DNA of 28,393 nucleotides from assembly GCA_040758355.1 (NCBI GenBank), contig JBFLWF010000028.1:1-28393 (forward strand). The letters run 5' to 3'. Positions 5,613-28,393 of this stretch are shown here, one piece after another. Each line of letters opens with the position of its first letter. Within the stretch, counting starts at the first letter, position 1. A program made the position numbers and the translations under genes. This stretch comes from Nitrospirota bacterium (GTDB lineage: Bacteria > Nitrospirota > Thermodesulfovibrionia > Thermodesulfovibrionales > Dissulfurispiraceae). The notes under the pieces are model-generated. The model was not told where the DNA came from. It saw only the letters and a list, made by a program, of their open reading frames with translations, and did not search any database.

Positions 5613-8600
5613 TTAGTTATTTTCAAAACTCAAAATATTTTTTTCAACTTCCGGATAAACATCATCAATTTTCTTCTGAGCTTCAATCGTTCTTGATAAT
5701 GCTGAAACAATTTTCAAGTAATGTTTTATGTCGTCTAATGATAATATCTTTTCTTTTCTGTCTTTTAGCCACTTTTCGCACACCTGATAACCACCGATTT
5801 GATATTCCCAGACTTCAGGTGCGATGCCTTCAAAATACTGATCGCTATTTATATAGAGCTTTCCGTGTTCATATCTCAACTTTTCGACTCTGTTGTTTCC
5901 TTTTCCTTGAAACCTTACAGATGGAGAATCGAGTTCTGATGCTTTAAGAAGATGCAATTCAACAAGCCTTTCACCATAATCTCCCATATTCTTAAAGAGC
6001 TTATAATCTTTTGTAAATGGTACTCTCGGAAAATCAATTTTTAGAAATTCGGCATATTTTGTGCGATAGATATTTGAATAAAGAATCGCATAAGTGTAAT
6101 AAAAGACTTCTTCAGTAGAGGGCTCTTTTTTGTATGTTGCGGCAAGACTTTTGATAAGTTCCACGTTAAGATTGGGTTTTCTAACAGTATAAGAGGCTTC
6201 GGGCTCAAAGAGCATCATAGCACGACCAAAGGTGAACCGTTCTCTGGGGCTTTTTGTTTTCTGGTAAAGATATAATGGAAAAACAAATCCTGCGCCTCTA
6301 TTGCTAATAAAAAGTCTTCGGTCTGAAATTTTATCCACGCAAAACACATAATTATAGATTTTTACAGGCTCATAAAGGTACTGTCTCATTACAGTCAAAC
6401 CGAGATTCTCTTTAGTGAAGTGCTGCATTATGTCTAAGCGGTCTCTGTCAACCAATTCGGGTCTGTAACAGATATATCTATCATCAAAAGGCCGGTAGGA
6501 ATACGGCAGAATCGAGTCCTTCCAATCTTCTTTTTTCAGCTTTTCCCTTGCTTCTTTCAGCTTAAAATCATGCGTATCTTTCAAGTCTAATGCCTGCCTT
6601 ACTAAGTCATCAGGCAAATCGCTGACAAATGTCCTCATCCTCTGTCTGATTTCTTCTTTTGTAAATCCCACTACAAAGTGGTCACGGTGGGTTGTAACAC
6701 CGCTTGATGATTGGATGAATATATCTTGAATAGACCAGAACTTCTCGTATTTGGCCTGTTCGGAGAAATCCCTTGGCACAAAGAAATAATAAGGCTCTGA
6801 TGGCTGGAGTTTTATCCATTTAGTTGATTTAGTCTCGTGTTTGTGTAAATACTCATATTTCCTTTCTCTCACCCCGTAAACATCCTGATAGAAGACCTTT
6901 CCATGCCCTTTCTGCTTTTTGTCCTTAATAAACAGGGCAATCGAAACTCCCTGCTGAATATCAAAGACATTCTCATCCTTGCTCCCATCGGGACATTTCT
7001 CTCCGATACGGCTGTTACCATGAAGGTTCAAGATGTATATATCGTTAAAACTTTCCAATAACTTCTTCCTCATGCCCCGATGAATCAAGCCGGATAGATA
7101 GGAATTGTTAGTAATCATTCCAATAACGCCCTTACCTGCCTTGTCTATTTTCCAATGGGCAAAACGGATAAACTTGATGTAGTCATCAGAGAGGGGCTGA
7201 ATATTCCTTTCATCACGGACATCTTCTTTATAGATGTCCATCTCATTTTCTATAAAATCAGATTTATTGGCAGAACTTACAGAATACGGCGGATTGCCGA
7301 AAATAACCAGAATAGGTTCTTCCTTTTTTACCTTGCCTGCTAACTGAGATTCCTCCGAAAGGGAAGCCATGCCAGGCAGTTCTGTCTGTGCAAGCTCCTC
7401 CATTTCCAACGTGTTGGTTAAATAAAGTTTAAACCTGTCCTCTTCGTGGAGTTTATATCCAAGCTCTTCAAGCAGGAAGGACATCTTTAAATGTCCGATT
7501 GCATATGGCGCCATCATCAACTCAAAGGCATAGAAATTTTTAAGTATATGTTCCTTTATGAACTTTTCCTTTGCTCCTTCGCCATATTTCGAGGTAAACT
7601 CTTCTGCTGCCAATTTCGCAGCCTCTGCTAAAAATGTAAGCGTGCCTGCCGCCGGATCTAAAACCGTTACAGAAGTATTCGCAAAGCCGTCATCTTTGCT
7701 AAAATGTTCTTTCAGAATATGGTGCAGAGAACGGATAATATAAGAGACTACAGGTTCAGGCGTGTAGTAAACACCTCTTTTTTCTCTTGTTTTGGGGTCG
7801 TATTCTGCAAGAAAAGTTTCGTAGAAATGGACTATGGGGTCTTTGCCTTTATGTTTATGGAAATACTCATCGAGTATCTTAAAAACATCTGTAACAGCAA
7901 GGACTTCAGAAATATCATCCGCAATCCATTCCATTTGCTTGGGCAAATCGCCAAGGGAAATGAATTTAAAGACATCTCTTAATATTCCGATTGTCTTGGG
8001 AATCCTGTCATAAGCAAGCTTCCTGTTAAAACCGTTCTCAGAACGCGTCCTCGCAGCAAAGAGTCCATATGTGATTGTCTGTGAATAGAGGTCGGCAAAA
8101 TCCTCTTTTTCGAGACCACTTATGAGATACTTCCGAAAAGCCTCATAAAATCCTAAAATAAAACCCTTTCCTCTTTTTTCTTCTTCTTGCAATTCCTGCG
8201 CAATGACCTCATCTTTTAAAAAGCGAGTTCTCTTTGCCAGTTCTATCGCAAGATTTTTTGCGTCGTATACCTTTGGCAGAGAGAAAGAGAAAAATTTCTC
8301 TAACAATCTCATAAAATCTTGCTCTTTTTCTACAGGCGGAATTGTTTTGAGCTTATGGACTACATAAGGCCTGCCTATAAGGGCTTTGTCTATTAGCAAG
8401 CCGTTACGGTAGAGTCTGAATTCAAAAAAATTGGTGAGTATCAGATTCGGGAATGTATGCAGATAGCGTTTTAGCTGGTCAGAATATTCTATATTGTCTA
8501 AATTTTCAACAGTTGGGGCTTTTGCTTCGATATAGCCAATTATATGTTGTTTTCCATCCCAAACCCTGAAGTCAGGATTTCCAGCCTCGGTTCTTTTGGG

Positions 8601-8744
8601 CAGGGTTGTTATATGGATATTTTTTTTGCCGATCGATTCTGCATGTCCTTTAAACAATTCATCGAGATTTGAATAATAGCTCTCTTCCCTTGCATCGCCT
8701 CGATTAGCAATATCTGTTATTTTTTTCAAATACGATTTAAGCAT
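5613..8744 (-). CDS. Single-chain restriction-modification enzyme (Type IIG/Type ISP-like N6-adenine MTase with N-terminal PD-(D/E)xK nuclease and C-terminal specificity domain)
   Basis: PDF...IEAK nuclease motif; GVYYTP; motif I LDPAAGTLTFL; motif IV GNPPY; C-terminal YRPFD, DFPRVP and YQIGGYQV blocks as in Type ISP C-termini; no helicase motifs. Confidence 0.88.
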   Translation of the reverse strand: MLKSYLKKITDIANRGDAREESYYSNLDELFKGHAESIGKKNIHITTLPKRTEAGNPDFRVWDGKQHIIGYIEAKAPTVENLDNIEYSDQLKRYLHTFPNLILTNFFEFRLYRNGLLIDKALIGRPYVVHKLKTIPPVEKEQDFMRLLEKFFSFSLPKVYDAKNLAIELAKRTRFLKDEVIAQELQEEEKRGKGFILGFYEAFRKYLISGLEKEDFADLYSQTITYGLFAARTRSENGFNRKLAYDRIPKTIGILRDVFKFISLGDLPKQMEWIADDISEVLAVTDVFKILDEYFHKHKGKDPIVHFYETFLAEYDPKTREKRGVYYTPEPVVSYIIRSLHHILKEHFSKDDGFANTSVTVLDPAAGTLTFLAEAAKLAAEEFTSKYGEGAKEKFIKEHILKNFYAFELMMAPYAIGHLKMSFLLEELGYKLHEEDRFKLYLTNTLEMEELAQTELPGMASLSEESQLAGKVKKEEPILVIFGNPPYSVSSANKSDFIENEMDIYKEDVRDERNIQPLSDDYIKFIRFAHWKIDKAGKGVIGMITNNSYLSGLIHRGMRKKLLESFNDIYILNLHGNSRIGEKCPDGSKDENVFDIQQGVSIALFIKDKKQKGHGKVFYQDVYGVRERKYEYLHKHETKSTKWIKLQPSEPYYFFVPRDFSEQAKYEKFWSIQDIFIQSSSGVTTHRDHFVVGFTKEEIRQRMRTFVSDLPDDLVRQALDLKDTHDFKLKEAREKLKKEDWKDSILPYSYRPFDDRYICYRPELVDRDRLDIMQHFTKENLGLTVMRQYLYEPVKIYNYVFCVDKISDRRLFISNRGAGFVFPLYLYQKTKSPRERFTFGRAMMLFEPEASYTVRKPNLNVELIKSLAATYKKEPSTEEVFYYTYAILYSNIYRTKYAEFLKIDFPRVPFTKDYKLFKNMGDYGERLVELHLLKASELDSPSVRFQGKGNNRVEKLRYEHGKLYINSDQYFEGIAPEVWEYQIGGYQVCEKWLKDRKEKILSLDDIKHYLKIVSALSRTIEAQKKIDDVYPEVEKNILSFENN

Positions 8745-18103: not shown

Positions 18104-20278
18104 ATGGATAGCCCCCTTTACATTGCCTTTCTCTGGCACATGCACCAGCCCTATTACAAAGACCCTTTTACAGGGATTTACCGGCTGCCATGGGTAAGGC
18201 TGCACGGAACCAAGGATTATCTGGACATGGTGAAAATCCTCGAGGAATTCCCGAACATCCGCCAGACATTCAATGTAGTTCCTTCCTTGATCGAGCAGTT
18301 GAGGGATTATATAGAAAACAATGCAACCGACAGGTACCTCGAATTAACGCTGAAAAATCCCTCTGACATGACAGAATCCGAAAGGCTGTTCGTCATAGAA
18401 AACTTCTTCCTCGCAAACTGGGACAATATGATAAAAACCTTCCCCAGATATTATGAACTGCTCGTAAAGAGGGGATTCCGCTTCACAAAGGGAGATATTG
18501 TAAGGGTATCCAGATATTTCACAGATTATGATGTAAGGGATCTTCAGGTGCTCTTCAATCTGAGCTGGATCGACCCCATGTTCAGGGATAATGACCCAAC
18601 CATGAAAAGGCTTATACAAAAAGAAAGGGGCTTTACAGAAGAAGACAAACAACTCGTAATAAAAAAACAGTTCGAGATATTAAAAGGGATAATCCCTGAA
18701 TATAAAAAAATGAGCCAGAGCGGACAGATAGAACTATCTGTAACGCCTTTCTACCATCCGATACTCCCCTTATTATGGGATACCGACTCTGCAAAGATAG
18801 CAATGCCCGGTGTAAGATTGCCGAAAAAGAGATACGGTTATCCTGAGGACGCTGTAAAACAGATCAGGATGGCACTGGATTACTTCGAAAAGATATTTGG
18901 ATACAGGCCGTCGGGCATGTGGCCTTCAGAGGGATCTGTGAGCGAAGATGTAGTTAAGGCCATGCATGCCGAAGGGATTAAATGGATCGCAACCGATGAA
19001 GAGGTCCTGGCGAGATCGCTTCAAAAACCTCTGAGAAGCCCCGAGGGCTATCTTACCGATGCAACGGGTCTATACAGGCCATATCAATTCAACAATGTCT
19101 CCATGATATTCAGAGACCACAAACTATCGGACCTGATAGGCTTTGTATATTCAGGATGGAAGCCTGAAAAGGCTGTGGATGACTTCATGGGCAAGCTCAT
19201 ACAGATAAGAAATACCCTTCCAAAAGACAGGCCATACCTTGTCCCTGTAATCCTCGATGGCGAAAATGCATGGGAATACTACAAAAACGATGGACACGAT
19301 TTCCTGAGAGGACTGTATCATGCATTGAGCAACGACAGCAGGTTCAAGACCGTAACCGTCTCGGAATTTATAAAAGAACACGACCCGGGCGAACCGCTCC
19401 ACAGACTTCATTCAGGCTCGTGGATTAATGCCAATTTCGGGATATGGATCGGTCATGAAGAGGATAACCTTGCATGGGACTATCTTGCTCAGACAAGGGA
19501 AGACCTTGGGGCATTTGCAAAGGCCAATCCCGACAGGGACATCACCGAGGCATGGAATGCCATTTATGCAGCAGAAGGAAGCGACTGGAACTGGTGGTAT
19601 GGGGACGAGCACACAACAGAAACACAGGAGGATTTTGACGAGCTCTTCAGGAACTATCTCATGCAGGTCTATAAAGTAATGGGCAAAGACATACCACCCC
19701 ATCTTTATGTACCCATACTGCTGGAGGACAGGAGCATCGAGCCCGTTACACAGGCAAGGGGCTTTATATATCCAAAAATTGACGGCTTTGTCACAAGCTA
19801 CTTTGAATGGTACCAGGGTGCTTATGTTGATGTAAAACGGTCTGGCGGAAGCATGCACAAATCCGAGAGTTTTGTCTCCGCGCTTTATTACGGCTTCAAC
19901 AAAGACAACATTTACTTAAGGATCGATCCGGCAATGCCGTTTTCAGAAACACGTGAGCCCATTATCCTGCAGATAAATATCGTACACCCCTTTACATTCA
20001 GAATAACCTGTGATCTGCAGGAAAATACTCTTAATGCAACAGTCCACGAAAGGGTATTCGAGGAGTGGATATTGGTGAAGACCATCGAGAATGTGGCAGC
20101 AAAGGAGATATTTGAAATAGAGATACCGTTTGCCGACATAAAGGCGCATGAGAATGACGAAATCCATTTTTCTATGGATATAATGAAAAACGGCGAAGGG
20201 ATAGAAAGGTGCCCATGGAGGGGGTATATAACCGTAACCGTTCCAACGCCGTATTATGAGACGCTGATGTGGTATTAA
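18104..20278 (+). CDS. Glycoside hydrolase family 57 (amylopullulanase-like)
   Basis: HMHQP, WVRLH, HPILPLL, GMWPSEG (nucleophile Glu), LDGENAWE (acid/base Asp), AEGSDWNWW. Confidence 0.93.
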   Translation: MDSPLYIAFLWHMHQPYYKDPFTGIYRLPWVRLHGTKDYLDMVKILEEFPNIRQTFNVVPSLIEQLRDYIENNATDRYLELTLKNPSDMTESERLFVIENFFLANWDNMIKTFPRYYELLVKRGFRFTKGDIVRVSRYFTDYDVRDLQVLFNLSWIDPMFRDNDPTMKRLIQKERGFTEEDKQLVIKKQFEILKGIIPEYKKMSQSGQIELSVTPFYHPILPLLWDTDSAKIAMPGVRLPKKRYGYPEDAVKQIRMALDYFEKIFGYRPSGMWPSEGSVSEDVVKAMHAEGIKWIATDEEVLARSLQKPLRSPEGYLTDATGLYRPYQFNNVSMIFRDHKLSDLIGFVYSGWKPEKAVDDFMGKLIQIRNTLPKDRPYLVPVILDGENAWEYYKNDGHDFLRGLYHALSNDSRFKTVTVSEFIKEHDPGEPLHRLHSGSWINANFGIWIGHEEDNLAWDYLAQTREDLGAFAKANPDRDITEAWNAIYAAEGSDWNWWYGDEHTTETQEDFDELFRNYLMQVYKVMGKDIPPHLYVPILLEDRSIEPVTQARGFIYPKIDGFVTSYFEWYQGAYVDVKRSGGSMHKSESFVSALYYGFNKDNIYLRIDPAMPFSETREPIILQINIVHPFTFRITCDLQENTLNATVHERVFEEWILVKTIENVAAKEIFEIEIPFADIKAHENDEIHFSMDIMKNGEGIERCPWRGYITVTVPTPYYETLMWY

Positions 20279-20385
20279 ACGGCTATGCTTAAAACTATCC
20301 GGTGCACAGCGTATCAAACAAGGCCGCAATCCAATTCACAAAACAAATATCAAATATTTAAAAGGAAGGCTTTTACATCTCCCCT

Positions 20386-20801
20386 GAAACCGTTATTTGA
20401 GTACACTAATAATCGGCAATAATAGAATTATACCAATGCTGTGGTTGAAGGGAAACCGTTATTTGAGTACACTATCTTTAAACACGAATTCCTGCACCTC
20501 TGAGCTGTGGTTGAAGGGAAACCGTTATTTGAGTACACTTTTTGCAAACGCATATAAAGGACTGCCGCTGCTGTGGTTGAAGGGAAACCGTTATTTGAGT
20601 ACACTGCAACCCTTGAGGTTGAGAGCGCCCTTCAGCTGTGGTTGAAGGGAAACCGTTATTTGAGTACACTTCGCAAGGAAAGACGTCGATTGCAGGCGGG
20701 CTGTGGTTGAAGGGAAACCGTTATTTGAGTACACTTCTGCTCTCTTCTTCAATATTGTCAATTTTGCTGTGGTTGAAGGGAAACCGTTATTTGAGTACAC
20801 T
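20386..20801 (+). CRISPR. Type II-C CRISPR array: 6 identical 36-bp repeats GCTGTGGTTGAAGGGAAACCGTTATTTGAGTACACT + one 5'-eroded repeat; 6 spacers of 29-30 bp
   Basis: Full repeats start at 20438, 20504, 20570, 20635, 20700, 20766; partial repeat 20386-20407; orientation set by complementarity to the + strand tracrRNA anti-repeat. Confidence 0.98.
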
Positions 20802-20802
20802 G

Positions 20803-20834
20803 CCCCTCCCGTAACTCATTGAGATTGCGGGAGG
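20803..20834 (+). terminator. GC-rich hairpin between array and cas2 stop (putative terminator, leader-equivalent end)
   Basis: CCCTCCCGTAA-CTCATTGAG-ATTGCGGGAGGG between convergent crRNA and cas transcripts; no U-tract. Confidence 0.55.
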
Positions 20835-20850
20835 GAACTGCCCCACAGAC

Positions 20851-21198
20851 CTAAAGAAATTGCAATTGTTCCGGCTGTTTTTCCGGTTCCACACTCTTTT
20901 TCCCAACAAAAACCTCCATTTTCCCAAACTGCCTGTCCGTAACTGCGAGGAGTCTCACCTGCCCATTTTTAGGCAACACAGACCGTACATATTTACGATG
21001 CACCTTGCTTGCCTCTTCAGTAGTGCAAAAGCGGGCATATACTGAGAACTGAAGCATTATAAATCCTCTCTTTATAAGTTTTTTTCGGAATGCCGTATAA
21101 TCTCTGCGCGCATCCTCGGTATCTACCGGAAGATCAAACATCACCATAAGCCACATGCTCTTATATCCTGATGTTTCATCAAAAATATCATTAAACAT
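20851..21198 (-). CDS. cas2: CRISPR-associated endonuclease Cas2
   Basis: MWLMVMFDLPV, FRKKLIKRGFIMLQFSVYAR, VTDRQF (type II-style Cas2). Confidence 0.96.
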   Translation of the reverse strand: MFNDIFDETSGYKSMWLMVMFDLPVDTEDARRDYTAFRKKLIKRGFIMLQFSVYARFCTTEEASKVHRKYVRSVLPKNGQVRLLAVTDRQFGKMEVFVGKKSVEPEKQPEQLQFL

Positions 21199-21200
21199 TT

Positions 21201-22091
21201 TTACAAAGCAGGCAGACTCAGCTTCTTTCTCGTACTGCTGTAAACATCCGCAAGTGATGAGGCAGCCCGTGCCAATATGCTAAAGAGCGCCCTTTCTTCT
21301 CCATCTATATAAAATGTTGATAGAAGCGCCTCTATAATTTTTTTCTTGATTGCAGTGTTTAACTGAGCGTCAGTTCCAATTTTACGAATAAGAAGCGCTA
21401 CTGCTTTATCTACGAGCGGACGAAACGGCTCCATAATATCGCTTGCAAGACAGAAGTTATCATACTTGTTATGATGATTTACGCCTAAAGATGGATGAAG
21501 CCCCGCACCGCATATGGCACGCGCTGTCAAGGCTCTGAGTATGGCATATCCATAGTTGAGCAGGCGGTTCTGATCATTAGCGTATCTGTTTCTACGAAAT
21601 GTCTTATCGCTAAAGAGCGCAGGCCAATATCTTTGTGCAGCCTGCGCTTCAATATTGCCAGTATCGCCTGATGTTACCCTCACGGCAAGTAATGTTAAGC
21701 CTCTATCAGAGCCTGTCATCTCAGTTAAAACATTTGCCTGAGCTTTAATTTTAGCTGTTACAATCTGCTGCCAGATACGCTTTTGGAGAGGCTTTGGAGC
21801 AACCGCCTGTTTTCTAAATCTTTCGGATTGGGTAAAATGAGAATCCAGAGGCAGCATCATTGCGGATGGCTGGAACTTTTCATCGCAGATAACCACAATC
21901 CCGCCTTGAGACGCAAGGCGGGAAATCACTGCCTGTGTCATGATTACGCGCGGGTTTGAGATAACCAATGCGCCGATATGAGAGATCGGCATGGTAGCTA
22001 TTGTCTTGCCTTCGCATTCAAGCAAGAGGTTGTCAAGATTGACGCTCAATTTGCCGGAATGTTCGGATATTTCAATAATCCTGTCAGTCAT
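21201..22091 (-). CDS. cas1: CRISPR-associated integrase Cas1 (type II)
   Basis: SGDTGNIEAQAAQRYW, NRLLNYGYAILR, LGVNHHN, LASDIMEPFRPLVD. Confidence 0.97.
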   Translation of the reverse strand: MTDRIIEISEHSGKLSVNLDNLLLECEGKTIATMPISHIGALVISNPRVIMTQAVISRLASQGGIVVICDEKFQPSAMMLPLDSHFTQSERFRKQAVAPKPLQKRIWQQIVTAKIKAQANVLTEMTGSDRGLTLLAVRVTSGDTGNIEAQAAQRYWPALFSDKTFRRNRYANDQNRLLNYGYAILRALTARAICGAGLHPSLGVNHHNKYDNFCLASDIMEPFRPLVDKAVALLIRKIGTDAQLNTAIKKKIIEALLSTFYIDGEERALFSILARAASSLADVYSSTRKKLSLPAL

Positions 22092-25000
22092 TCGCCTGCC
22101 TAACCTCGCCGAGCGGTGTGATAATAACCTTGCGGCAATTTAATTTCTTCAAAGGCTCAAGAAGGCTTGATTCCAGCTTTTTAGGCTTTGCCTCATTGAT
22201 CGGCGCATACATAATACGAGCATATTCCTTGCCTCCAACCCTTGTTACCGTAATAGTTTTTATGACAAACAATTCTTTCTTTTCCGGTTCCGCTTCCAGT
22301 TCAATAATGTCGCCTAGAGCTAAAGAACAAATGAACCGCCTATTATCGGTTTGTTCCCTGTTTATGACCGGCTCTCGCTTTTTGAGCCGCTGTGCTGCTT
22401 CAAACATGCTGACGGTTTTGCCTGTCCATTTTGTTTTGGCATTTTTTTGCGTTTCCTCAAAGATTTCTATATGGCTGTTCAATCCTGAAGTCACATATCT
22501 CTCTGCATATCCCGAACCCACAGGCATAACCGTCTCTGATTTTCTAACACGGACTTTCTTGATAGGTATTTTTCTCTGCTGTCCGGTTCTTTTTTCTGTT
22601 GCTGATAGAAATGGAAGTCTCTCCTCACTGCCGAACGCTTTTTGAATATCACTCTCTCCAAGCTTTTCTGGATTATAACCAAGGTCGCGAAGTTTGTTGA
22701 TTACAATCTCTTTTATTCTTTCATCAACAATATTTTTAATGTCGGATGGTGTAAGCGATGGCACCTTTTTCCGCACATGAACATATTCTTTTCCGTCTGA
22801 TGCTTTTATAGGTTTGCTGTATATAGTCTCTTCGTGTAACGCGCCGCGTATTCTGTGCGACACGCGGTGGGAGACTGTAAGCTCCCTGATAGACTGTCTG
22901 ACATTTTCTAAGAATCCTTCCCACGGCTCTACGATATTACCGAATAAGCGCCGTCTCTCTGCTGCAGCTCGTTTTGACGCTTCGCTGAGCGTTTTGAATA
23001 TCTGGTGGTCGGTGAGCGCTATTGTAATTGCATCAATAGCATGGTGTCTGTGATCTGTGCGCTCCTTTTTCCCGCCGTCTCCGAGCACTCTGTTCAAATT
23101 CAGTGCATTTCTCAGATGGGCGGTAATACCCCCTCTTCCGGCCTGAATGCGCCTTTTGCCGCTTTCATCAATCACGCCTCCGTAGAGAAGACCGAGATAA
23201 TCCATTGCAATTTTGCTTACATAGCGCGTGTCGTTCAACTGGCTGCTGACGAAATCTTCCCAATCTGTCGATCTTTCCATAAGAAAGCGTTGTAGCTTTG
23301 CTTGTTTCATACCTTTGTCGCATTTAAAGGTTTTTACTCTTCCAATAATCTCACCCCATCGTTCAGTATTACCCGAATACGCTTCAAAAGGAGTCTTGCC
23401 TGATTTCATATTTCTGTTCTCTTCTGCCAGACAGAGAGTTTTATTTATATAGGAATTATCAAGACATCGGCTAAAGGGAATTATATGTTCTATATCAAAA
23501 TTTCCAAGCGTTGAGAATGAGATTGGCGTTCCTGTATAAGGGCATCTCCAGTTGGCTTCTTCAGCCAGCATGACTTTTAATATATCTTGTGATGTAGCTG
23601 CTCGATCTGTTTCTTTAAGAAATGAGTCCGCTGCCTTCTTTCGCTCTGTTTCTTTGCGGCGACTGACCTTCCAAGTTTCTTCCCGCTGTTTTCTGCTTTT
23701 CTTCATGTCTCTTGCAAGCTCAATCCTGATCGCCTCAGGCTTGCCGTATTCCTTAACAATGGCATTAACGACTTTTCGCAATTCCGTAAGCGCCCTGATT
23801 ACGACAAGATTTCGCATATCATCGTCATAATCAGAAACAGGCGGAAGCATATCACGGGGCGGCTCTTTAGGACGGTCACCATAAATCTCTTTAACTGCTG
23901 TTGCATATGCAGTGCCATTTTCAAGTAATGACAGAACTTTTTTTATTGCCTTCTTAGACAGGTTGCAATAGCCTGGTTGCAAATTGATTTTTGGCAAAGA
24001 CAAGGCCATTTTTTCGTCAAGATTAAATTCTACAATAATCTTTTCAGGCAATCCCCGCTCATTTTCCTGACAATTTATAACCTCAGCTACGAGACGCTGT
24101 TTCTGTTCATCAGACCACGAAATCCATATATCGCCCAAGATTTTATGGAAAGCGGCAGCGGTTCTATTTCCTATCAAACGAGTTTCTCCGCCGCCTTCAA
24201 GGTTGATTTTTGTTTTATGTGGAAGATTCAAAAGCTTTTTTGCATCGGTAATTGTCAAATCCCCCTCATTTTCAAGCCGTGCAATAAGGGCAATCCTTTC
24301 TTCTGATGTCAAATCTCTTACGCTGCCGTCAGGCATTATAATCCTCGTATTGTTTATGTTTTGAAGCATTCTGAACTGTTGAGCTTGTAATGATGCCCAT
24401 GGCGCGCGCTTATGTCCGGGTTCAAACTGACAATCGCCTATTAAATGTTTCTGGCTTTTAAGCGGACGCTGAAAAAAGATAGCATGGTAAATAGTCTCTT
24501 TTAATGCTGGAGTTAATTGTTCAGGATAAAATGCCGCCTGTTTATCCCATATAAGATTGAATTCCTTTTTATACATATCACGGAGGGTATAACGTCCCCG
24601 AATCTTATTGGAATTGTCGGCAAAGGGATCAAGCCGGACAAAATATTCTCCAAGAGTGCGGGCGTTCGCTTTCTCTATTTCCAATTGCAAAAAATGTGTT
24701 TCCTCAGCAATCTTGCCTTCTTCTTCTTTTTGTTTCTCACTCTTGCCTTTTTTATTTGTCCTCTCAAAGCCGCGCCGCTGCGCAAGATGATACAACGCTC
24801 GTCCTATCTCATAAGGCTCAAGCTTCTCATCGAGACCGGCAGCCCTTAGCAAGTAAAGTAGGTTATGATGTATTTTTATCTGCGTTCTGTATTCATCCTC
24901 TCCTCTTGCCATAAGTTTTTCATTCCAAGAGACTGCCAACTCTGTATCAAGTTTCTTTAACAGCCAGTCTTTCTGCTGTGAGATTTCTTTGCGGCTTAAT

Positions 25001-25296
25001 TTGCTATCAAGCGGCACACCGTCAATGGGAAGCAGACCAGCTTTCTGGAGAACCACAAAAAGATCATTTAAACGGTTTGCAGTGCGTTCTGTTTGCCTGC
25101 GGGATTGACGCGCATTTCTTCTTTGTACATTATGCGATTCTTCTTTACCTAAGCCATATCCTTTTACTCCAGCATCAAAGGTGCGAACACCTGTTTTGAT
25201 AACGCCTATGGGTTTATATCCATCGCTTTTGAGCATCGCCCAGCCTATAGAATTCGCTCCAAGATCAAGCCCTAAAATGTATTGTTCTGCGCTCAT
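22084..25296 (-). CDS. cas9: Type II-C CRISPR RNA-guided endonuclease Cas9 (1070 aa)
   Basis: RuvC-I LGLDLGANSIGWA, Arg-rich bridge helix, RuvC-II IELARD, HNH DIEHIIPFS..DNS..NK, NDTRY, RuvC-III HHAIDA; no csn2 or cas4 in the operon; AGGAGG RBS. Confidence 0.98.
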   Translation of the reverse strand: MSAEQYILGLDLGANSIGWAMLKSDGYKPIGVIKTGVRTFDAGVKGYGLGKEESHNVQRRNARQSRRQTERTANRLNDLFVVLQKAGLLPIDGVPLDSKLSRKEISQQKDWLLKKLDTELAVSWNEKLMARGEDEYRTQIKIHHNLLYLLRAAGLDEKLEPYEIGRALYHLAQRRGFERTNKKGKSEKQKEEEGKIAEETHFLQLEIEKANARTLGEYFVRLDPFADNSNKIRGRYTLRDMYKKEFNLIWDKQAAFYPEQLTPALKETIYHAIFFQRPLKSQKHLIGDCQFEPGHKRAPWASLQAQQFRMLQNINNTRIIMPDGSVRDLTSEERIALIARLENEGDLTITDAKKLLNLPHKTKINLEGGGETRLIGNRTAAAFHKILGDIWISWSDEQKQRLVAEVINCQENERGLPEKIIVEFNLDEKMALSLPKINLQPGYCNLSKKAIKKVLSLLENGTAYATAVKEIYGDRPKEPPRDMLPPVSDYDDDMRNLVVIRALTELRKVVNAIVKEYGKPEAIRIELARDMKKSRKQREETWKVSRRKETERKKAADSFLKETDRAATSQDILKVMLAEEANWRCPYTGTPISFSTLGNFDIEHIIPFSRCLDNSYINKTLCLAEENRNMKSGKTPFEAYSGNTERWGEIIGRVKTFKCDKGMKQAKLQRFLMERSTDWEDFVSSQLNDTRYVSKIAMDYLGLLYGGVIDESGKRRIQAGRGGITAHLRNALNLNRVLGDGGKKERTDHRHHAIDAITIALTDHQIFKTLSEASKRAAAERRRLFGNIVEPWEGFLENVRQSIRELTVSHRVSHRIRGALHEETIYSKPIKASDGKEYVHVRKKVPSLTPSDIKNIVDERIKEIVINKLRDLGYNPEKLGESDIQKAFGSEERLPFLSATEKRTGQQRKIPIKKVRVRKSETVMPVGSGYAERYVTSGLNSHIEIFEETQKNAKTKWTGKTVSMFEAAQRLKKREPVINREQTDNRRFICSLALGDIIELEAEPEKKELFVIKTITVTRVGGKEYARIMYAPINEAKPKKLESSLLEPLKKLNCRKVIITPLGEVRQAND

Positions 25297-25311
25297 CTCG
25301 CTGCCTCCTCC

Positions 25312-25340
25312 TTGACAAAAGTTATAGCAATGTCTATATT
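25312..25340 (+). promoter_or_regulatory. Sigma70 promoter for tracrRNA
   Basis: TTGACA(25312)-17 nt-TATATT(25335); predicted +1 at about 25347 coincides with the first base of the anti-repeat. Confidence 0.8.
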
Positions 25341-25346
25341 AAATTC

Positions 25347-25462
25347 AGTGTACTCAAGTAACGGTTGCCCTTATGTACTACAGTAAGGACTTCCGTTCCG
25401 CAGGGAAAGCTCTGAGGAGCCCCCTTCTGGAAAGCCCCGTTTAAAAGCGGGGCTTTCTTTTT
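25347..25462 (+). ncRNA. tracrRNA
   Basis: Anti-repeat AGTGTACTCAAGTAACGGTTGCCCTTATGTACTACAGT vs repeat reverse complement AGTGTACTCAAATAACGGTTTCCCTTCAACCACAGC; then AAGG nexus, hairpins and an intrinsic terminator. Confidence 0.92.
25430..25462 (+). terminator. Intrinsic terminator of tracrRNA
   Basis: GAAAGCCCCG/CGGGGCTTTC 10-bp stem followed by TTTTT. Confidence 0.85.
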
Positions 25463-25474
25463 CTATCATTGGTA

Positions 25475-25678
25475 TTACCATTCCTTACTCACCGGAGGCA
25501 TGGAAATGCTGAAGCAGAATGGTTTGGCTACTTTTGAATGTTCTTGAGTTTTTATCCGGATAGAGGTTTTTTTATAGACAGCATCGGATTTTTCGAGCGC
25601 CTCCTTTATCAGCACCGTAAACCTGTGGCGGTAAAGAATGGGCAATTTGTCGGCTCTAAAAGTCAATTTTATTCTCAT
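25475..25678 (-). pseudogene. cas6: Truncated CRISPR endoribonuclease Cas6 (N-terminal remnant)
   Basis: MRIKLTF..LPILYRHRF..LIKEAL..KPFCFS resembles the Cas6 N-terminus (MRxxl, lP.nY, K.FtFS); only 67 aa with no C-terminal G-loop; ends next to the tracrRNA terminator. Confidence 0.72.
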
Positions 25679-26238
25679 TTCAGTTTGCCCTTATTTAATA
25701 TTTCCTCAAATGTCCTTAAAAAATCTTTAATATCGGATGCTACATCAAATTCTTTTAACCAGCCACGTATATACTTCGTATCGATATCGGGATTTTTAAG
25801 GATAATCGTCCTTACATCCTCTAAGTCCCTCGGTCTTCCTGCAAAGATTTTGTGGATTATGACATCTTCAGGCGAAGCAAAATATACTTCCTGACTCAGC
25901 ATCTCTATTTTTTTTGCCCTCTTTATGGCTTCCGTTTCATAGGGCGTAAATGAGAAAATGAAATCTACCCTTATGCCGGTTGTTTCATCCAATGCAGGTA
26001 GAACCATTGTCTGCATAACAAAGGATTTTATGTCTTCAGGTATGGGTTTAAGAGAAAGGTCTTGAATAACGACAAGAAGCTCATCAATATGATTGGCATT
26101 TACGCCAAGTGTAACATCTATGTCTCTGGTAAGACGGGGTTCTCCATAGAGTAGCACTGCCTGCCCGCCTATAATCATGTAGGGGATATTGTGTTTTTTG
26201 AGGCTTGCTCCTATCCTTGAGAGTATCTCTTCAAACAT
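25675..26238 (-). CDS. Nucleotidyltransferase, AbiEii/DUF6036-like (putative toxin)
   Basis: IIGGQAV..YGEPRLTRDID pol-beta-type motif, RVDFIF, C-terminal K.FAGRPRDLEDV. Confidence 0.8.
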   Translation of the reverse strand: MFEEILSRIGASLKKHNIPYMIIGGQAVLLYGEPRLTRDIDVTLGVNANHIDELLVVIQDLSLKPIPEDIKSFVMQTMVLPALDETTGIRVDFIFSFTPYETEAIKRAKKIEMLSQEVYFASPEDVIIHKIFAGRPRDLEDVRTIILKNPDIDTKYIRGWLKEFDVASDIKDFLRTFEEILNKGKLK

Positions 26239-26432
26239 GAATTCAATATCTTTGCAACTTTTATATCTACATCTATTCCTTCTAACGGTTCTTTAGGAGG
26301 CAGTATGCCAAGTGTAACGCCTTCATGCCACATGGCATCAAAGATTTTCATGGCACTGCCAAAAGACAGTCTGCCTTCATCCCTCATAAAATTGTCTTCA
26401 AACCTTTTAAGTATTTCTGGACTCTTTATCAT
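26211..26432 (-). CDS. Small hypothetical protein (putative antitoxin/partner of the nucleotidyltransferase)
   Basis: 73-aa ORF overlapping the NTase start by 28 nt; two-gene TA-like layout. Confidence 0.65.
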   Translation of the reverse strand: MIKSPEILKRFEDNFMRDEGRLSFGSAMKIFDAMWHEGVTLGILPPKEPLEGIDVDIKVAKILNSCLKRYSQG

Positions 26433-26468
26433 CTCTTATCCATTTTAGCATGAAAATTCCATAAATAA

Positions 26469-27515
26469 TCAGCCCTGATAAATATGCACATCCCTCTGTG
26501 GGAATGGGATTCTTATTCCGAGTTCATCGAATCTCTTATAGATTCCCCTGTTTATTTCATCAACAGTGCGAAGCCGTAATGCAGGCTCTTTTATCCAGCA
26601 TAATAGCTCAAGGTTCAGCGCTGATTCTCCGAACGCATTGAAAAATACCTTTGGTGCAGGATCATCAAGGATATTGCCATTCTGTGCGGCAATATCGATT
26701 AATGTCTTCTCAACAAGGTCAATATCGCTTCCATAGGCGACATTTACAGGAATCCTTACCCTGAGATTTGGTGTCGGCGCACTCTCATTTACTATCTTTG
26801 AGCCGGCGATTATGGAATTGGGGATGGTTATCATTATGTCATCGAGGGTCTTAATCCTCGTGCTCCTTATACCGATTGACACAACCTCTCCCCTGTCAAC
26901 CTTATCGATGACGATAAAATCTCCTATCTTAAACGGCTTGTCCGCAAATACGCTTATTCCGCCAAAGAAATTGGCTATAGTGTCCTTTGCTGCCAATGCA
27001 ATAGCAGCACCGGCGATTCCTGCCGATGCTATAAGAGGCGTGATGTTTATCTTCCATATGGATAAGATAACCATGAGCGAGGCGAGGATTATTGCTATCT
27101 TTGAGACATTCTCGATTAATGGAATTATGTCTTTGCTCAAGCCTGTTACATCAGATACCTTATGGATGGCGTCTTCGATAACAATATTGCTTACCTTGAC
27201 GGCTGCAATCGTCCATATTGCGGTCATCACCGAATAGATGATGCCGTCGGCATAAAACATTACCTTTTGTGAAGGTCTCAGGTACGCAATAGCAAGAACA
27301 ATCCCGATCAGTATTATCGTGAAATAAATGGGTCTGTGAATAGCATCCAGTATTTTGTCATCGATATCACTCTTTGTAAATCTTGTAAATTTGCGTAAAA
27401 CTTTGTCCACGAAAAAGTCGGCAATCTTTGCTATCACGATGAAAGCCGCAATGGAGAGAATTGCATTGATATAAGGCGATGCCGAGATATTAAGGGATTC
27501 TATCAATCTTGTCAT
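26469..27515 (-). CDS. Small-conductance mechanosensitive channel (MscS family)
   Basis: AIALAAKDTIANFFGG, DKPFKIGD, IGIRST, IPNS, GIRIPFPQRDVH. Confidence 0.93.
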   Translation of the reverse strand: MTRLIESLNISASPYINAILSIAAFIVIAKIADFFVDKVLRKFTRFTKSDIDDKILDAIHRPIYFTIILIGIVLAIAYLRPSQKVMFYADGIIYSVMTAIWTIAAVKVSNIVIEDAIHKVSDVTGLSKDIIPLIENVSKIAIILASLMVILSIWKINITPLIASAGIAGAAIALAAKDTIANFFGGISVFADKPFKIGDFIVIDKVDRGEVVSIGIRSTRIKTLDDIMITIPNSIIAGSKIVNESAPTPNLRVRIPVNVAYGSDIDLVEKTLIDIAAQNGNILDDPAPKVFFNAFGESALNLELLCWIKEPALRLRTVDEINRGIYKRFDELGIRIPFPQRDVHIYQG

Positions 27516-27525
27516 AAATTCCCTC

Positions 27526-28267
27526 CTATTCTTCGATATAATTCAAGTCCTTGTGGAAAGTCTCCTCAAGGCGGTATAGCGCATAAAACGCAATGAGCAT
27601 GCATAAAGCGCCCACCATAGCCCCTGCATTAAGTATACCAAAATATTTTTTAGTTATCTGAAACAGGAAGGTAATGGGAATAACCGTACCGCGAATAAAA
27701 TTAGGCACTGTAGAGGCCACTGTTGCCCTTATGTTGGTTCCAAACTGCTCTGCAGCAATGGTAATGAATATTGCCCAGTAGCCCACTGCAAAACCTATTA
27801 TTCCGCAGGATAGATAAAACAATGAAGAGCTTGCTCCGCGGGGCATGAAATATAAGGCTATGGAAATGGAGGATAGTATCAGAAACATCGATACGATCTT
27901 TTTTCTGCTCCGAAAATACTGGCTGAGGAATCCACTGATAAAATCTCCAAAGACCAGTCCTATATAGCAGAACATCACTGCCTCTCCTGCATTAATCGTC
28001 CCTGAAATATTCATTGTCTTTGCGAATTCAGGCGAAAAGGTAATGAGTATGCCTACACAGAACCATATGGGAAGCCCAATGAGGATGGAGTTCATATATT
28101 TGAAGAAACGCCTGCGGTTGGTGAAAAGCATAAATAAATTTCCTCTGCTTATGTCCCTTTCTTCTATCTGTTTATACATCCCTGACTCATAAACACTTAT
28201 CCTCATTATGAGCAGGAGCATGCCGAGACCTCCGCCTATGAAATAGGCAATCCTCCAATCAAAATGT
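27526..28267 (-). pseudogene. MFS transporter, C-terminal part, interrupted by ISL3 insertion
   Basis: Frame continues upstream of the ORF-track start as HFDWRIAYFIGGGLGMLLLIMR up to 28267, where IS sequence begins; AEQFGTNIRAT and LEETF MFS motifs. Confidence 0.85.
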
Positions 28268-28393
28268 GGCTCTTCGTGTAATCGAGTGGGTCATTTTATA
28301 TCTCCTTGAGCATACATGTAAGTATTTTCAGGCGCAGATACTCCTCGTCTCTGAGACCGTAAGCCCTTCTCTGTATAACACGAATTTTGTTGT
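28268..28393 (-). mobile_element. ISL3-family insertion sequence, right end, truncated by window edge
   Basis: Terminal GGCTCTTCG (ISL3-type end); minus strand 28393-28296 encodes NKIRVIQRRAYGLRDEEYLRLKILTCMLKEI*, a typical ISL3 transposase C-terminus. Confidence 0.88.

Follow-up and report, generated by a model that had tools for sequence, protein, structure and literature searches.

How does the beginning of a cas6 gene, which belongs to class 1 CRISPR systems, come to lie against a type II-C cas9 cassette? The question is raised by contig JBFLWF010000028.1, a stretch of 28,393 nucleotides (nt) from a Nitrospirota bacterium of the Dissulfurispiraceae, hereafter the window. It is a whole contig of the 2.77-Mb, 99%-complete assembly GCA_040758355.1 (labelled G000 below), and the named relatives of its proteins are Nitrospirota. 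The minus strand carries, from mscS to the convergent GH57 gene, a 73-residue open reading frame (ORF), a nucleotidyltransferase (NTase) gene, a 67-residue ORF, cas9, cas1 and cas2, followed by the CRISPR array. A preliminary description of this DNA proposed that the 67-residue ORF is what remains of a class 1 locus, and that the place offers a snapshot of class 1 to class 2 replacement. The comparisons described here support this as the most likely reading: the locus is most likely the scar of such a replacement at a known kind of defence hotspot.

The cas6 Stub

The 67-residue ORF begins with an ATG that overlaps the stop codon of the NTase gene. The Cas6 N-terminal homology claimed for it is borne out by the searches: 25 of 37 candidates match at E ≤ 0.01, all 25 carry PF01881, the best match is 77% identical over residues 1–61 of a 265-residue Cas6, and a PADLOC profile search returns Cas6b (E = 2.3e-11, profile positions 1–57 of 225). 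Pfam and NCBIfam profile searches give no match for the stub; the Pfam model that matches the full-length protein covers just residues 134–264. A sequence search of the PDB with the Cas6 of a same-genus genome, G004, gave no match at E ≤ 0.001.

The DNA homology of the stub to six relatives stops one base past codon 62, at position 25492. The ORF lies on the strand of cas9, cas1 and cas2, and its stop codon is found, as had been described, 12 nt from the end of the U-run of the tracrRNA (trans-activating CRISPR RNA) terminator at 25462. The Cas6 endoribonuclease consists of two RRM (RNA recognition motif) halves and has a C-terminal glycine-rich loop. With 62 of about 265 codons left, the stub lacks the C-terminal half, and the glycine-rich loop is missing. 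Judged by these matches, what is left are the first 62 codons of a type I-B cas6, and the product does not count among working Cas6 proteins.

The remaining codons carry two compensating indels: one base is missing at 25566/7 and one extra is present 22 nt on, at 25544/5, so that codons 38–45 are out of frame and the frame is restored afterwards. The frameshift removes L39, Y40 and P41, which are kept in 24, 25 and 25 of 28 full-length rows, respectively (ungapped count). M21 and A/S22, present in 23 and 25 of the 28 rows, are changed to T and V in the window, and a second record of the same 67-residue stub, P0149, retains M21 and A22. Over 52 codons, comparison with the closest intact cas6 (G146) gives a nonsynonymous divergence (dN) of 0.059 and a synonymous divergence (dS) of 0.70. 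This low dN/dS suggests that most of the divergence arose in a working gene and that the truncation is recent. Among proteins of 36–118 residues, only 2 match the stub. It is most likely a dead gene start; neither a new enzyme nor a role of Cas6 in type II systems is indicated.

The GH57–mscS Slot in Related Genomes

The slot was compared in 4 same-genus genomes and in 68 genomes of the family, 17 of which have this mscS at E ≤ 1e-100. It is empty in G002, G003, G035 and G016, and GH57 and mscS abut in the same-genus G002 and G003. The basic state of the slot is thus empty, and the class 1 locus is itself an insert. Next to mscS in the 17 family genomes stands GH57 directly (3 genomes), cas6 (3 genomes: G000, G004 and G271), or other genes or the contig end (the rest).

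At a distance of 61 nt from mscS, G004 has a full cas6; next come a Phd/RelE-like pair, cas8b, cas7, cas5, cas3, cas4, cas1, cas2 and, where the contig ends, an array. A full cas6 with a type I-B operon, which the preliminary description expected in relatives, therefore exists directly after mscS. The class 1 locus placed by that description between mscS and GH57 is supported in this form, but as an insert in a slot that is empty in its basic state. The stub corresponds to the 5′ end of cas6 genes of this family and sits at the same slot after mscS, with the same orientation; the window, in contrast, lacks everything from cas6 codon 63 on, and its head adds the NTase pair. The type I-B genes cas8b, cas7, cas5, cas3 and cas4 and a class 1 array are absent from the window, and no orphan class 1 array was found in the rest of the assembly either.

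The mscS–cas6 spacer of G271, a genome from another genus, is like that of G004 (78% over 200 nt), which indicates that class 1 at this slot is the wider-spread state. There, cas6 ends after 32–33 codons and is followed by a polymerase-beta-type NTase gene, with no cas9 adjoining.

Homology between alleles stops at the last codons of GH57 and mscS, and the slot holds other cargo in G001 and G019. The cargo of the window (20278–26469) comprises six genes (cas2, cas1, cas9, the stub, the NTase gene and the 73-residue ORF), with no integrase or transposase. The slot is a defence hotspot: its flanks are conserved, its cargo is unrelated and variable, and it has no mobilising gene. Sliding identities along GH57 and mscS reveal mosaicism among the same-genus genomes and give no direction.

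Two observations concern the slot in other genomes. The G001 insert (L019:4627–7628) holds four unrelated ORFs, one with a LysM domain and the others without a Pfam match; together with an insert of 3148 letters at the slot in metagenome run X3, it is a candidate unknown defence cassette. The mscS of G003 is broken and truncated at the slot (L021:6989–7781).

The NTase Pair

The NTase scores above the Pfam cut-offs for DUF6036, AbiEii and DUF2204. The 73-residue ORF travels with it; it has no Pfam, NCBIfam or PADLOC match and falls in an unnamed Atlas cluster. Of 16 annotated loci that carry a close NTase, 3 (those of G229, G234 and G264) run on into class 1 genes, and none runs into cas9 within the fetched DNA. 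In G264, a decayed NTase end is fused to about 15 cas6 codons via the same overlapping start (83% over 342 nt). Going by these gene linkages, the NTase pair belongs to the class 1 island.

The G264 remnant (L102:7200–7565) comprises the sequence upstream of the 73-residue ORF, the 3′ half of the NTase gene and about 15 cas6 codons, beside a probable tyrS. In the order, the pair is widespread and often heads defence loci, which by sequence are class 1, restriction-modification-like or WYL-like.

The 73-residue ORF and the NTase are a candidate for an uncharacterised toxin–antitoxin system. They resemble the type IV toxin–antitoxin system AbiE in having an AbiEii-like NTase and in forming a two-gene unit that heads defence loci, but the 73-residue partner matches no AbiEi model. 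CreTA addiction modules, which guard CRISPR systems, are RNA-based according to the available passages of PMC12737573; a CreTA-type addiction link of the sort these passages describe was not found at the window locus, the NTase pair being of a different kind.

The Type II-C Cassette

Systems of type II-C, the type of Neisseria and Campylobacter, have cas9, cas1 and cas2 only. The window's cassette has the same gene content, with a tracrRNA upstream of cas9, an array read opposite to the cas genes, 36-nt repeats and 29–30-nt spacers. Within the cassette nothing departs from the type; what sets the window's copy apart is its surroundings, with an 8-bp direct repeat at its two ends and a class 1 scar next to it. 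cas2 directly adjoins the array, and neither csn2 nor cas4 is present. The three cas genes share their strand with the stub, while the tracrRNA and its terminator lie on the opposite strand, facing it. The RuvC and HNH motifs of Cas9 are found at residues 8, 525, 601 and 751.

The modelled duplex of tracrRNA and repeat has 33 pairs and an energy of −50.1 kcal/mol for the +/+ combination versus −39.3 for −/−, and the CRISPR RNA most likely derives from the + strand. A search of the window against Rfam gave no tracr family match. The array spacers have no convincing match in the genome or the fetched loci, and no convincing class 1 target. By the usual definition the cassette is apparently complete.

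In the order, 13 of 251 genomes match this Cas9 at E ≤ 1e-10, with best identities of 46–50% outside G000, and none of the 67 other family genomes matches at E ≤ 1e-200. The closest proteins form six metagenome clusters at 64–87% identity, followed by a protein of Geomobilimonas, the nearest named relative, at 49%. When contigs were scanned for Cas9, 6 metagenome loci and 11 genome loci turned up, all of them distant relatives (24–33%), and viral contigs and plasmids gave no match; an exact pattern taken from the joint region is also absent from viral contigs. None of the 11 fetched loci of related Cas9s has a cas6 piece. On this distribution, Cas9 is a rare, foreign newcomer at the slot. The locus yields a compact II-C Cas9 of 1070 residues, half-identical to named relatives, whose tracrRNA and repeat are defined.

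Two features of the promoter region can be seen by eye. The −35 box of the tracrRNA adjoins the cas9 ribosome-binding site (25312–25330), and the minus strand has an extended −10-like motif that shares positions with the tracr promoter, an arrangement of divergent, overlapping promoters.

The 8-bp Repeat and the Two Joints

The 8-mer formed by the last bases of GH57 has a single other copy in the window, at 25470, which lies past the tracr terminator and before the cas6 break. The chance of finding it in the 28-nt joint region is 3.7e-4 by genome frequency and a few 1e-3 once register is taken into account, the test being post hoc. The repeat looks like a target-site duplication of the II-C cassette. 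It would put the end of the cassette 14 nt inside the cas6 break, which implies that the arrival of the cassette and the breakage of cas6 are separate joints. The cassette looks whole while cas6 is cut.

The only match found between the cassette ends in a search for terminal inverted repeats is a 7-mer at chance level, and there is no transposase gene. A joint made by homology-facilitated illegitimate recombination would combine a homologous anchor with microhomology; homologous anchors are present in GH57 and mscS. The DNA of the tracr joint has only two short, chance-level pieces in 316 other genomes of the order.

Other Alleles in Protein Records and Metagenomes

A second version of the joint is found in P0150, a JGI protein of 78 residues. 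Its Cas6 N-terminus lacks the frameshift pair, and of the 15 residues that come next, 14 correspond to another reading frame of the window's antisense-tracr end (25488–25444). Outside the shifted stretch, P0150 and P0149 are unlike at 10 of 54 positions, mostly in residues known from intact alleles. The P0150 record, "2 contigs, longest 13019", is also that of an mscS that ends in the same residues as the direct mscS–cas6 allele of G271, and no member of the NTase cluster lists a longest contig of 13019. The same joint, within one base, probably stands behind two class 1 heads: NTase–cas6 in the window and, as these records suggest, mscS–cas6 in P0150.

Three other JGI proteins, P0025 (a Cas6 that reaches the glycine-rich loop), an NTase 98% identical to that of the window and a 73-residue ORF product 97% identical to the window's, all have a longest contig of 22171 nt. 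From these equal lengths, the 22171-nt contig is probably an unswapped class 1 allele.

Evidence from the groundwater metagenome X2 hints that swapped and unswapped alleles coexist. Among the matches listed, and with the reservation that read depth is not cell share, the stub–cas9 contig has a depth of 25 and the tracr bin of 26; the depth is 61.5 for a cas6 contig in which the missing base is restored, and 75 and 94 for pieces of the NTase pair (listed range 75–94). One loose end, at 25553, reads by eye as P0025/P0150 residues, and another, at the GH57 stop, resembles the G004 flank.

In X3, a 901-nt contig (record 18), 93% alike, links GH57 to the array trailer, and another contig links GH57 to mscS across 3148 other letters; X3 has no cover over the NTase pair, a gap given no weight here. 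The GH57 protein P0234 and the Cas1 protein P0165 share the longest-contig figure 7438.

Origin of the Locus

The following sequence of events seems fairly probable overall. A type I-B island would have occupied the slot, in the order 73-residue ORF, NTase, cas6, cas8b-cas7-cas5-cas3-cas4-cas1-cas2-array. The II-C cassette (tracr-cas9-cas1-cas2-array) would then have entered at the GH57 stop codon, leaving the 8-bp direct repeat. The class 1 genes past cas6 codon 62 may have been lost on the entry of the Cas9 allele, with GH57 as a homology anchor and an illegitimate joint inside cas6, or they may have been deleted as redundant soon after. Later recombination between Cas9 and class 1 alleles, with mscS, the 5′ part of cas6 and GH57 as homology arms, could have continued, which would explain the same joint behind different heads. 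We infer the direction, order and recombination route of these steps, as well as the contig sharing of the JGI proteins. Of the earlier proposal that a class 1 locus was deleted or overwritten by a Cas9 cassette, the loss and the scar are supported; either deletion or overwriting may have been the route, given the 8-bp repeat and the existence of cas9-free stubs, and no allele among those found fixes the order of events.

A more daring extension, which we consider doubtful, is that the cas6 scar serves as a homology arm that pairs with the cas6 of a resident type I-B system and, together with GH57, lets the Cas9 allele overwrite class 1 loci repeatedly. If this were true, the same joint behind two heads and the presence of both alleles in one metagenome would amount to a class 1 to class 2 sweep under way in a wild population.

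Several observations weigh against the favoured sequence of events. Stubs of cas6 also occur without an adjoining cas9: 32–33 codons in G271, about 15 after the NTase remnant in G264 and 85 in G006. An internal cas6 stub is found in 3 of the 10 family genomes with this cas6, and 9 of 38 cas6 cluster representatives end early in a non-Cas6 tail, some of which may be sequence errors. The G004 comparison has its own weaknesses. GH57 is on another contig there, so that the I-B operon, tied to mscS, only presumably reaches GH57; G004 lacks the NTase pair; and the 14 nt beyond the right repeat do not match its GH57-side flank. Moreover, the proportion of synonymous differences between the stub and the G004 cas6 is 0.65, compared with 0.43 in the mscS flank and 0.23 in the GH57 flank (Fisher p = 0.03 and 2e-6, respectively), and by this measure the stub is not a vertical copy of that gene. 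The differences in the stub extend to codon 62, with no clear shared tract before the joint. Lastly, the loci of P0150 and P0025 are known from protein records alone, and the shared contigs of the JGI proteins come solely from equal longest-contig figures.

It is possible, but not likely, that decay came first: the I-B island would have shrunk to the cas6 stub alone, and II-C would have inserted later at the stop codon of GH57, duplicating 8 bp. Class 1 would still have given way to class 2 in the slot, but the arrival of Cas9 would not be the cause of the loss. The repeat, which marks an additive insertion ending 14 nt from the cas6 break, is consistent with this order, as are the stubs without adjoining cas9 in G271 (at the same slot), G264 and G006, and the fact that the genome's other I-B locus is also in pieces. 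However, a search of 317 genomes of the order found no cassette-free allele that has this break, and before the insertion GH57 would have lacked a stop codon at its normal place, the right repeat being followed by C. The break is also recent according to the low dN/dS, yet II-C at the end of GH57 is found as well in a population about 93% alike (X3).

Less probable still is a graft in the reverse direction, in which a II-C allele already in place would have acquired the mscS end, the NTase pair and the 5′ part of cas6 from a class 1 island through recombination anchored in mscS, in a lineage that never had class 1 at this place. The end product would look alike, mscS is mosaic among the same-genus genomes, and II-C occurs at the end of GH57 in a diverged population (X3, and P0234 with P0165, both with longest contig 7438). 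But in the P0150 haplotype the same joint seems to occur with no NTase pair, in which case a graft would gain nothing. In addition, the link between class 1 and mscS spans two genera, and this Cas9 is in no other family genome at the threshold given above.

That the stub was retained as a functional micro-protein or translated leader, for instance as a Cas9 accessory or for transcription into cas9, is very improbable. Its start overlaps the NTase stop, so that it is probably translated; the two indels bring the frame back, and dN/dS is low. The preliminary description had regarded an intact 67-residue ORF conserved beside cas9 in relatives as the sign of an accessory protein, and the same 67-residue form does occur in P0149 and in X2. 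However, the window copy has lost L39, Y40 and P41 and carries altered residues at M21 and A/S22, and at the joint P0150 departs from it in both frame and length; this speaks against a conserved protein. The C-terminal half with the glycine-rich loop is also gone, no cas6 piece accompanies the related Cas9s in the 11 fetched loci, and the matches among small proteins are just the two mentioned.

An assembly or binning chimera, to which the fragmentation of the genome at insertion sequence (IS) copies might point, is refuted by single contigs that cross the joint without gaps in X1, the possible source run (20772–28267, 3 differences), and in X2, from an independent study (22259–25625, 7 differences), and a JGI protein carries the same read-through tail.

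Comparison with Known Exchanges

CRISPR types are often gained and lost, and their turnover is usually inferred from presence or absence. Here, replacement of class 1 by class 2 would be documented by an empty slot, a class 1 allele, a class 2 allele and a break point, all readable at base resolution in one environmental Nitrospirota group, and both alleles seem to share a habitat. This provides a natural case for studying how adaptive immune systems displace each other, and whether the scars left behind direct subsequent swaps. As an example of defence-system swapping it is unusually well preserved: a new instance of a known process, with no new kind of system or protein function.

In the defence hotspots described in the available passages of PMC10250203, conserved core genes flank short, unrelated defence cassettes without a mobilising gene, and homologous recombination in the flanks is proposed. 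The window shares the conserved flanks, the unrelated cargo and the absence of a mobilising gene with these replacement islands. Its slot differs in that it alternates between two CRISPR classes, the outgoing one leaving a datable scar, and those passages contain no such case.

A similar process is described in PMC5361080 for the effector–immunity modules of the type VI secretion system of Vibrio cholerae: a resident module gives way to an incoming one but a remnant of it stays behind, the joint arises a single time through homology-facilitated illegitimate recombination, and homologous recombination spreads it. In the history proposed for the window, too, displacement would leave a remnant and a joint. 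There the kept immunity gene is useful, whereas here the remnant is most likely just the dead start of a gene, and adaptive immune systems are what is exchanged. The literature search, with supplements and most subscription papers outside its reach, listed no paper describing part of a cas6 left next to cas9.

A Second Class 1 Locus and a Parallel Exchange

The genome has a second type I-B locus, in IS-bounded pieces: C72 carries a TM1802-type cas8b and cas7, and C66 carries part of cas5, cas3, cas6b and part of cas1. This locus also has NTase–HEPN-like pairs. Across the contigs of the genome, no second cas2, no second array and no class 1 array were found. C66 and C72 were considered as the lost rest of the stub's operon and rejected: the 3′ part of a cas6 related to the stub is absent from them, a separate cas6b is present, and they are taken as a second locus.

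The 85-codon stub of G006 (L016:15658–16224) belongs to the same cas6 family and lies ahead of a type I-D-like operon. The cas1 of that operon is 94% identical to the cas1 piece of C66, a parallel exchange of class 1 for class 1.

Features of the Window and Neighbouring Genes

Table 1. Coordinates of the features between and including GH57 and mscS in the window.
Feature	Position	Strand	Remarks
GH57 gene, left conserved flank	18104..20278	+	Pfam PF03065; orthologs in 4/4 same-genus genomes; homology to relatives ends at its stop codon
8-bp direct repeat, left copy (last bases of GH57)	20270..20277	+	just two copies in window
CRISPR array with 7 repeats (36 nt each, the first one degenerate) and 6 spacers (29–30 nt)	20372..20801	+	
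cas2	20851..21198	-	Pfam/NCBIfam
cas1, type II/NMENI	21201..22091	-	TIGR03639, 264.8 bits (cut-off 120)
cas9, 1070 residues, RuvC and HNH motifs	22084..25296	-	TIGR01865, 689 bits; HNH_4, RuvC_III
tracrRNA promoter-like site	25312..25340	+	11/12 consensus; consensus match alone
Predicted tracrRNA: anti-repeat, stem-loops, 13-bp terminator hairpin, U-run	25346..25462	+	approximate ends; z −3.68
8-bp direct repeat, right copy; likely outer end of II-C cassette	25470..25477	+	complement includes the stub's stop codon
14 nt between right repeat and cas6 break	25478..25491	.	outside cassette repeat and cas6 homology
cas6 (type I-B) stub, 67 residues; codons 1–62 cas6-derived (25492–25678), then 5 read-through codons	25475..25678	-	
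AbiEii/DUF6036-like NTase, 187 residues; head of class 1 island	25675..26238	-	same NTase–cas6 joint in G264
73-residue ORF, overlapping partner of NTase; possible antitoxin	26211..26432	-	without known family
mscS, right conserved flank	26469..27515	-	Pfam and relatives

Beyond mscS, a gene for a transporter of the major facilitator superfamily (MFS; 27526–28393) is cut at 28267 by an IS end. This IS end is found at 27 contig-end places of the assembly, the 5′ part of the MFS gene is on C22, and the X1 contig runs on past 28267 without the IS. In the left part of the window, a 1043-residue ORF (5613–8744) between phosphomannomutase-like and DUF155-like genes is, by appearance only, a fused restriction-modification enzyme. 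Positions 1111–1352 hold a tRNA and then a small signal recognition particle RNA, ahead of dnaX-ybaB-recR.

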